Below the pieces are notes generated by a model. The model ran no database searches. It was not told where the DNA came from and saw nothing but the letters and a program-made list of their open reading frames with translations. The position numbers and the translations under genes were made by a program. A stretch of DNA of 64,000 nucleotides. Origin: a virus. Taxonomy: Duplodnaviria > Heunggongvirae > Uroviricota > Caudoviricetes. Below, one piece after another: positions 45,958-46,034 of this stretch; the stretch's first letter is position 1, and each line of letters begins with the position of its first letter. The stretch lies in the IMG/VR virus record IMGVR_UViG_3300005253_000053; one strand, 5' to 3'.

Positions 45958-46034
45958 TGGCGCACCCGGAGGGAGTCGAACCCTCAACCCACGGTGCTAG
46001 AATCCGCGTGCTCGGCCAGTTGAGCTTCGGGTGC
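45958..46034 (-). tRNA. isolated tRNA, anticodon CUA (amber suppressor) or UCU depending on fold
   Basis: Acceptor GCACCCG/CGGGTGC, D-arm GCTCAACTGGCCGAGC, T-arm GAGGGTTCGACTCCCTC; anticodon region GCGGA TTCTAGC ACCGT. Confidence 0.55.

Follow-up and report, generated by a model that had tools for sequence, protein, structure and literature searches.

A putative orphan amber-suppressor tRNA in a standard-code, tRNA-rich jumbo phage from marine sediment

The IMG/VR virus record IMGVR_UViG_3300005253_000053 (Caudoviricetes) was analyzed over a stretch of 64,000 nucleotides, hereafter the window, which belongs to an uncultured marine-sediment jumbo phage with a contig of ~225 kb. On its minus strand, at 45958-46034, the window carries a transfer RNA (tRNA) gene of 77 nt, including an encoded 3' CCA, with the anticodon 5'-CUA-3' (45998-46000), which reads UAG. 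Homologues in related contigs keep both the anticodon and the fold, and TAG is an ordinary stop codon in the part of the genome that was surveyed. We consider it probable (about 0.6) that the gene encodes an orphan amber-suppressor tRNA, under structural constraint, in a tRNA-rich jumbo phage that uses the standard code.

The tRNA gene and its homologues

The gene and its CUA anticodon are confirmed by two programs. ARAGORN assigns the anticodon cta, and its label 'Pyl' stems solely from that anticodon. The Rfam family RF00005 matches locally at 45961-46034 on the minus strand with 44.8 bits (E=1.7e-8), above the gathering score of 29. A preliminary description of this DNA, made from the letters alone, had noticed a well-formed tRNA standing by itself between protein genes, and this is borne out: the gene is 6.6 kb from the tRNA array at 33.5-39.4 kb and 5 kb from that at 51.1-54.3 kb.

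The RNA, GCACCCGAAGCUCAACUGGCCGAGCACGCGGAUUCUAGCACCGUGGGUUGAGGGUUCGACUCCCUCCGGGUGCGCCA, adopts a cloverleaf in its minimum-free-energy fold (-33 kcal/mol). With a 7-bp acceptor stem (GCACCCG/CGGGUGC in ARAGORN, in Rfam and in the minimum-free-energy fold), a discriminator G73, a 4-bp D stem (D arm GCUC-AACUGGCC-GAGC) and a 5-bp T stem (T arm GAGGG-UUCGACU-CCCUC), it has the architecture of an elongator tRNA. Among the tertiary positions, A14, G18G19 and the TTCGA of the T loop are present, and A8 replaces U8 and C21 replaces A21 in a standard numbering that we assigned. An A at position 8 is also found in at least two other tRNAs of this phage (Lys-ctt and His-gtg); Rfam scores for its other tRNAs are between 33 and 68 bits.

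The anticodon arm is unusual. Rfam aligns it as GCGGA / UUCUAGC / ACCGU, with one base inserted after position 26 and A31.A39 unpaired, which is the placement that the preliminary description had given. The minimum-free-energy fold has a 5-bp stem, CGCGG/CCGUG, and a 9-nt loop, AUUCUAGCA. These are descriptions of one structure, a possible six-position stem in which the loop-proximal pair is A.A. The 5' strand of this stem, CGCGGA (46003-46008), begins with the 'extra' nucleotide after position 26, and the 3' strand is ACCGUG (45990-45995); the pairs are C-G, G.U, C-G, G-C, G-C and A.A, followed by the 7-nt loop UUCUAGC (U32 U33 C34 U35 A36 G37 C38; 45996-46002), all on the minus strand. The loop has U33 and a purine, G37, and with the A.A pair open it is effectively 9 nt long. 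The tRNA sequence is identical in three assemblies (L015, L016 and L017) from three sequencing runs of one project, so the odd anticodon arm is real and not an assembly artefact.

Homologues were reached through the DUF1643 protein that adjoins the tRNA. It has three close relatives in the protein collection, with 95%, 72% and 67% identity, on the contigs L001, L002 and L003, respectively. In L001 and L002 a tRNA lies at the same position and is called cta by ARAGORN, and in both of them the stems are fully paired and the loop is the canonical 7-nt CUCUAAA. The homologous tRNA of L003 is represented by its 3' third alone, as the contig ends before the anticodon. Searches for further relatives returned little. 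Megablast of the locus against deposited phages gave no match, and in IMG/VR neither the exact anticodon arm nor the DUF1643 neighbour nor the Pif1 helicase led to relatives; a degenerate pattern of the T arm and acceptor stem matched solely unrelated AT-rich phages in IMG/VR. One metagenome scan and one genome-collection scan each returned one unrelated tRNA fragment, and the protein of the upstream 88-aa gene, used as a query, added one contig of 964 bp that ends before the tRNA.

An alignment of the window tRNA with that of L001 needs no gaps and places the two CUA triplets opposite each other, in agreement with the calls of ARAGORN and Rfam and with the anticodon proposed earlier. The two tRNAs differ at 20 of 77 positions (74% identity, compared with 87-94% in the flanking DNA); the anticodon arm accounts for 10 of these differences and the anticodon is unchanged. 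Three of the six anticodon-stem pairs are changed on both sides between the window and L001 and are still paired (C-G/G.U, G.U/U-A and G-C/U-A). Elsewhere, L002 has G-C at the acceptor pair 3-70, where the window has A-U. At 50-64 in the T stem, the window, L002 and L003 have A-U, U.G or C-G. For the tertiary pair 15-48, A15-U48 of the window corresponds to G15-C48 of L001 and L002, in a numbering that we assigned and that was tested by no tool. Pair 31-39 takes three forms: A.A in the window, A-U in L001 and C-G in L002. As judged from these alleles, the compensatory changes in the stems, and apparently also in the 15-48 pair, indicate selection on the fold. Such a pairing-preserving pattern is what would be expected of a folded, functional tRNA, unlike a pseudogene. 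Because the syntenic homologues carry CUCUAAA loops, CUA is taken to be the ancestral anticodon and the one used in the window, and UCU is rejected.

The loop CUCUAAA, with C32, A37 and A38, is that of efficient amber suppressors, as captured in the 'extended anticodon' concept. It is present in L001, in L002 and in both suppressor tRNAs of phage XacN1, and the window loop UUCUAGC departs from it. Based on this loop and the open 31-39 pair, compared with CUCUAAA in the relatives, the window allele is predicted to be a weak, attenuated suppressor of low efficiency.

The closest annotated tRNA to that of L001 is a tRNA-Lys(CUU) of Mycobacterium phage Myrna (86% identity over 70 nt; range 81-86%), and position 36 is the sole difference between their anticodon arms. 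This suggests an origin from a tRNA-Lys(CUU) by a U36A change. Tryptophanyl- and glutaminyl-tRNA synthetases (TrpRS and GlnRS) depend on G73 according to the identity rules, and the U73 of L002 argues against these enzymes, at least for L002. Tryptophan is the sole amino acid without a tRNA among the ~43 tRNA and tRNA-like genes of the window, in which neither ARAGORN nor Rfam found a tRNA with a CCA anticodon. A tryptophan origin is not favoured, given U73 in L002 and tRNA-Lys(CUU) as the nearest annotated relative of the L001 tRNA. In E. coli, lysyl-tRNA synthetase (LysRS), which uses U35 as an identity element, and GlnRS charge CUA suppressors, and pair 31-39 tips the charging, A31-U39 towards lysine and C31-G39 towards glutamine (PMC1483225). 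The phage tRNA would probably be charged by a host enzyme, with lysine or glutamine.

Stop codon usage and the survey for in-frame TAG

The genetic code was surveyed in the 64-kb window and in ~10 kb beyond each of its ends (contigs L018 and L020), together ~84 of ~225 kb. Gene calling in the window with self-trained codon usage gave 75 genes, one of which runs off the window end; the others stop in TGA (33), TAA (22) or TAG (19 of 74). In L018 and L020, which overlap and flank the window, TAG ends 11 of the 57 genes called by the source databases, and the standard-code gene calls of these databases are dense in the 10 kb beyond each window end. TAG makes up ~20-25% of stops and is not depleted. 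The GC content of the window is 59% (0.57-0.63).

Genes that end in TAG include those of the terminase, SbcC, an 880-aa exonuclease and a gp32-like protein, and genes of relatives also end in TAG. The terminase gene (22563-24557), which was identified by tblastn matches to annotated terminase large subunits, stops in a TAG that overlaps the start of the T4-like portal gene (20870-22570, PF07230) by 8 nt. This overlap had been the ground on which the preliminary description took TAG for a genuine stop and argued against global reassignment, and both points hold. The terminase, the portal and the ~130 gene calls in the 84 kb are intact under code 11. The surveyed 84 kb follows the standard code, and recoding is unsupported.

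The preliminary description had also called for a survey of in-frame TAG codons in late genes of the whole genome. For each coding-strand TAG, the sequence on either side was examined for coding signal, at strict thresholds and afterwards at relaxed ones. There was no convincing in-frame TAG in the ~84 kb; two sites, 55559 and 29932, passed the check and both are ordinary junctions. Read-through at 55559 would lead from the exonuclease into a 156-aa protein and at 29932 from a dNMP-kinase-like protein into SbcD. At both sites the downstream gene has its own ribosome-binding site and ATG, and the proteins on the two sides are unrelated. A normal junction with a ribosome-binding site and ATG was likewise found at 12634, where read-through would lead into a 188-aa protein. 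In four of 18 TAG-terminated genes the reading frame runs on without a further stop into the next gene, a number close to that expected by chance. Of the two roles that had been offered for the tRNA, suppressor or stage-specific recoding device, the first stands as a statement of what the anticodon would decode, and the second found no support in these ~84 kb. Pfam scans of ~40 larger open reading frames (ORFs) and the precomputed annotation of L015, L018 and L020 revealed no gene for release factor 2 (RF2) or another release factor, for an aminoacyl-tRNA synthetase or for pyrrolysine (Pyl) functions.

Read-through at 46483, which would join the 88-aa gene to the ORF that precedes the tRNA, was rejected: a 1-nt indel in L001, within a stretch that is otherwise ~96% identical, means that there is no conserved frame across it. 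This gene, of 88-90 aa, ends in TAG in the window (46483-46485, minus strand), in L001 (1511-1513) and in L014 (953-955), which carries a 67%-identical homologue; its L002 counterpart ends in TAA. A separate observation concerns the base that follows the stop codon, which is a purine in 15 of 18 genes ending in TAG compared with 25 of 55 ending in TAA or TGA (Fisher p=0.006, in a post hoc comparison of a small sample). A 3' purine favours amber suppression in E. coli.

Genomic setting and the tRNA complement of the phage

The tRNA is tightly flanked by small ORFs on the same strand. Upstream, a 78-aa ORF (MRIERGL...CTCGEVFFDADDI; 46036-46272, minus strand), for which the ENA assembly has a 78-aa gene call, has a TGA that ends one base before the tRNA 5' end; it is kept in L001 with in-frame indels of 12 and 9 nt. 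Downstream is a 69-aa ORF (45728-45937, minus strand), present as a gene call in L015, L016 and L017, and its GGAG ribosome-binding site begins 9 nt past the CCA end. A scan of 45600-46900 found no promoter-like or terminator-like sites. Because of the tight ORF flanks and the lack of such sites nearby, the tRNA is most likely processed from a polycistronic transcript. L001 has a different downstream gene, which places the tRNA at a mosaic junction.

Between the 88-aa gene and the 78-aa ORF lies a non-coding stretch of ~210 nt (46272-46482, minus strand) in which conservation is the highest in the locus. It shares ~96% identity with L001, the 1-nt indel excluding a conserved reading frame, and an imperfect direct repeat of ~60 nt within it has AAATTTTTGG motifs. 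It has no Rfam match and no folding signal (z=0.22). The gene for a Pif1-family helicase (41603-44263, minus strand) contains an intein that carries a LAGLIDADG homing endonuclease; the intein is missing from the orthologue of L003 (431 aa).

Nearly all window genes are on the minus strand, and they encode, in addition to the terminase and T4-like portal, SbcCD, a RecA-like protein and a family-A DNA polymerase. Deposited phages are very distant, with at most 32% identity for the terminase and 29% for the portal. Near-identical proteins (KKN80217.1 and KKN80220.1) are encoded on a 224,854-bp contig from the marine sediment metagenome PRJNA259156, from which we conclude that the window derives from an uncultured jumbo phage. 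Contigs in the 0.2-1 Mb size class also carry window proteins.

By ARAGORN's count the minus strand of the window holds 36 tRNA genes and the plus strand none; Rfam detects a further seven tRNA matches and also a transfer-messenger RNA (tmRNA). The tmRNA (49211-49625, minus strand) matches RF00023 with 121 bits (E=1e-46). ARAGORN is silent on it by default and, with relaxed thresholds, finds it with an atypical tag of 29 residues, ANTVNSVEDLEALWASAPAPMGGKVLSRV*, flagged 'tag not identified'. It resembles the tmRNAs of cluster M mycobacteriophages at the 3' tRNA-like end only.

Several tRNA-like genes of the window have abnormal anticodon arms, and default ARAGORN misses most of them. They form a cluster at 52176-52603 on the minus strand, with others at 53642-53714, 54018-54103, 54259-54333 and 37060-37130. 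Within the cluster, the arms are truncated at 52382-52447 and 52450-52516 and expanded at 52176-52253 and 52526-52603, the latter having a 2-base 'anticodon' according to ARAGORN. The gene at 53642-53714 has a degenerate T loop, and that at 54018-54103, a 'Lys-ctt' of 86 nt, has a long variable arm and lacks a CCA end. Three tRNAs with leucine anticodons (CAA at 36382-36458, UAG at 38520-38595 and GAG at 34865-34943, all minus strand) are 76-79 nt long and are without the long variable arm, unlike bacterial class II tRNA-Leu; leucine tRNAs with long arms (UAA and CAG) are also present in the window. The tRNA arrays hold two genes for HNH homing endonucleases and one for a PD-(D/E)XK nuclease (33846-34412, 35463-35945 and 52950-53618, minus strand).

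Two other regions are of note. A protein of ~900 aa (30611-33388, minus strand) combines a major-vault-protein shoulder (PF11978, E=6e-28) with vault-repeat and SPFH/Band 7 domains; such a protein is unusual in phages, and no PHROG family matches it. Candidate anti-defence genes lie in a run that extends from window positions 1-786 (minus strand) past the left window end into L018 (10429-20450) and includes an Apyc1-like anti-Pycsar metallo-beta-lactamase and AcrVA2-like and 2H-SAK proteins, along with a dihydroorotate dehydrogenase gene. In IMG/VR, the contigs L005, L007, L008, L009 and L010 of unrelated AT-rich phages contain an uncalled tRNA-like element (for example at 1320-1408 of L007) with an acceptor stem identical to that of the window tRNA, a nearly identical T arm, a UCU anticodon arm and no standard D arm. 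Three of these five contigs have a different CUA tRNA.

Readings of the tRNA and known systems

Were the gene an amber suppressor, the tRNA would be transcribed together with the flanking small genes and freed from the transcript by RNase P and by processing of its 3' end. Charging would fall to a host synthetase able to tolerate or recognize U35, most likely LysRS and, as a second candidate, GlnRS. The charged tRNA would then compete with release factor 1 at UAG, so that the outcome is partial read-through and not reassignment. Several points weigh against this account. No read-through target was found in the surveyed sequence, and back-up stops are not enriched after TAG (Mann-Whitney p=0.94), which gives no sign of genome adaptation to read-through. 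The complete homologues compared number two (L001 and L002). L002 has U73 as its discriminator and the window, L001 and L003 have G, such that amino-acid identity may not be shared among them.

The window allele itself could be a decaying or neutral passenger, a former suppressor that now decodes poorly or not at all. Some of the observations in favour of this also count against a working suppressor. Five departures from the canonical tRNA are concentrated in it (A8, C21, A31.A39, G37 and C38), it has diverged faster than its flanks, and its Rfam score of 44.8 bits is the lowest of the three homologues (63.6 in L001 and 56.5 in L002), which fits decay as well as attenuation. The same phage also holds the aberrant tRNA-like genes with truncated or expanded anticodon arms. 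Yet the four stems are intact with compensatory changes relative to L001, the 15-48 pair apparently co-varies, and the CCA end, G18G19, T loop and U33 are kept, with the same sequence in three samples; moreover, functional-looking tRNAs of this phage share A8 and have similar scores. We regard decay as unlikely. A role without decoding, as a decoy or sponge for a host anticodon nuclease or another tRNA-targeting defence, or as a regulatory tRNA-like RNA, would account for the fast evolution of the anticodon arm, in which half of the differences from L001 lie, and would suit both the cluster of genes with abnormal arms and the nearby Apyc1-like and AcrVA2-like genes. We hold it to be very unlikely, since the three anticodon bases are precisely the conserved part of the loop, and a UAG-optimal loop kept in L001, L002 and XacN1 is hard to explain without decoding.

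Readings that change what is decoded appear less probable again. As in code-15 phages, of which a CUA tRNA is a hallmark (10.1101/2021.08.26.457843), late or lysis genes elsewhere in the genome could have in-frame TAG codons read only by this tRNA; ~140 kb of ~225 kb lies outside the survey, which also tells against an orphan suppressor, and no lysis genes were identified in the window. Against such stage-specific recoding stand the intact terminase, portal and ~130 gene calls, the frequency of TAG among stops and the 59% GC, which are unlike the low-GC, TAG-poor route (10.1101/2021.08.26.457843), and the lack of RF2 or aminoacyl-tRNA synthetase genes in the loci examined; we think it highly doubtful. 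The preliminary description had weighed a fold with a UCU (Arg) anticodon, and the 9-nt loop, which contains UUCUA in the minimum-free-energy fold, could be imagined to serve a frameshift or quadruplet decoder. The acceptor stem, discriminator and T arm are indeed Arg-like, blastn matches in phages are mostly annotated as tRNA-Arg, and the tRNA-like elements of the unrelated AT-rich phages have UCU arms. The UCU register, however, pairs at three of five positions that are not contiguous and is impossible in L001 and L002, where CUA aligns with CUA in a 7-nt loop; ARAGORN and the Rfam covariance model both choose CUA, and the phage already has a normal tRNA-Arg(UCU) at 36304-36380. This reading is barely credible, and the UCU alternative is set aside.

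If the orphan-suppressor reading is extended, the lineage may keep a tuned amber suppressor within a kit for taking over translation, composed of ~43 tRNAs and its own tmRNA 3.2 kb away. Low-level read-through of UAG would yield C-terminally extended isoforms of phage proteins or burden host translation, and the tmRNA would deal with read-through or non-stop products. The fast-evolving anticodon arm, and pair 31-39 in particular (A.A, A-U or C-G), could act as a dial for efficiency or as a switch between LysRS and GlnRS. We offer this as a speculation that is more probably wrong than right by a wide measure.

Among systems with CUA anticodons, tRNA-Pyl has in common with the window tRNA the anticodon and a possible sixth anticodon-stem pair, which is C-G in the window, G.U in L001 and absent in L002, the top pair of the window stem being A.A. 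In a typical tRNA-Pyl, a single nucleotide separates the acceptor stem from the D stem, the D loop is small and has no G18G19, the variable loop is 3 nt long, T-Psi-C is missing and the anticodon stem is 6 bp. The window tRNA has AA at positions 8-9, an 8-nt D loop (AACUGGCC) with G18G19, a T loop UUCGACU (TTCGA) and a variable region GGUU/GGGUU, and no PylRS was seen; identity as tRNA-Pyl was rejected. Laboratory amber suppressors of the tRNA-Lys(CUU) U36A type offer another parallel, as the L001 arm likewise differs from that of Myrna tRNA-Lys(CUU) at position 36 only. In contrast to these, the window tRNA is natural and conserved in its lineage and has an extra nucleotide after position 26, and its A.A at 31-39 is not among the configurations of PMC1483225.

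Phages that use code 15 (crAss-like, Lak and other gut phages) also encode CUA tRNAs, for which charging by a host synthetase is presumed (10.1101/2021.08.26.457843). They have low GC, depleted TAG stops and in-frame TAG in structural and lysis genes, whereas the window phage has 59% GC and TAG at about a quarter of its stops. Its profile does not fit the proposed route from low GC through loss of TAG stops and acquisition of a suppressor to recoding. This suggests that phages can retain amber suppressors for reasons unrelated to a change of code.

The nearest parallels are XacN1, with two CUA tRNAs, for which in-silico read-through of 18 amber stops revealed no target (PMC5852040), and RsoM2USA, with one (PMC8504454) and no read-through target identified. 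Like the window phage, they are large, have dozens of tRNAs for nearly all amino acids, carry a CUA tRNA that is absent from the host and still use UAG as a stop. The window phage shows the full XacN1-type profile: it exceeds 200 kb, encodes dozens of tRNAs, uses the standard code and has a CUA tRNA that is targetless in the ~84 kb surveyed. In our reading of the alignment, the suppressor tRNAs of XacN1 also appear to have an imperfect pair closing the anticodon loop. The XacN1 copies lie inside a tRNA cluster in the terminal repeat and have CUCUAAA, whereas the window tRNA is isolated and has UUCUAGC; there is no sequence kinship past generic tRNA features, and the phages are unrelated.

The presence of suppressor tRNAs in phages that keep the standard code still awaits an explanation. 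The finding alone does not make this question testable in the native system, as the phage is uncultured and no target was identified, but the three natural alleles differ exactly at the positions that control suppressor efficiency and Lys/Gln charging and so provide a ready-made comparison set. The kind of element is already known from XacN1 and RsoM2USA, where it is unexplained, and the window tRNA adds an unrelated case from a high-GC, TAG-rich lineage of marine sediment.

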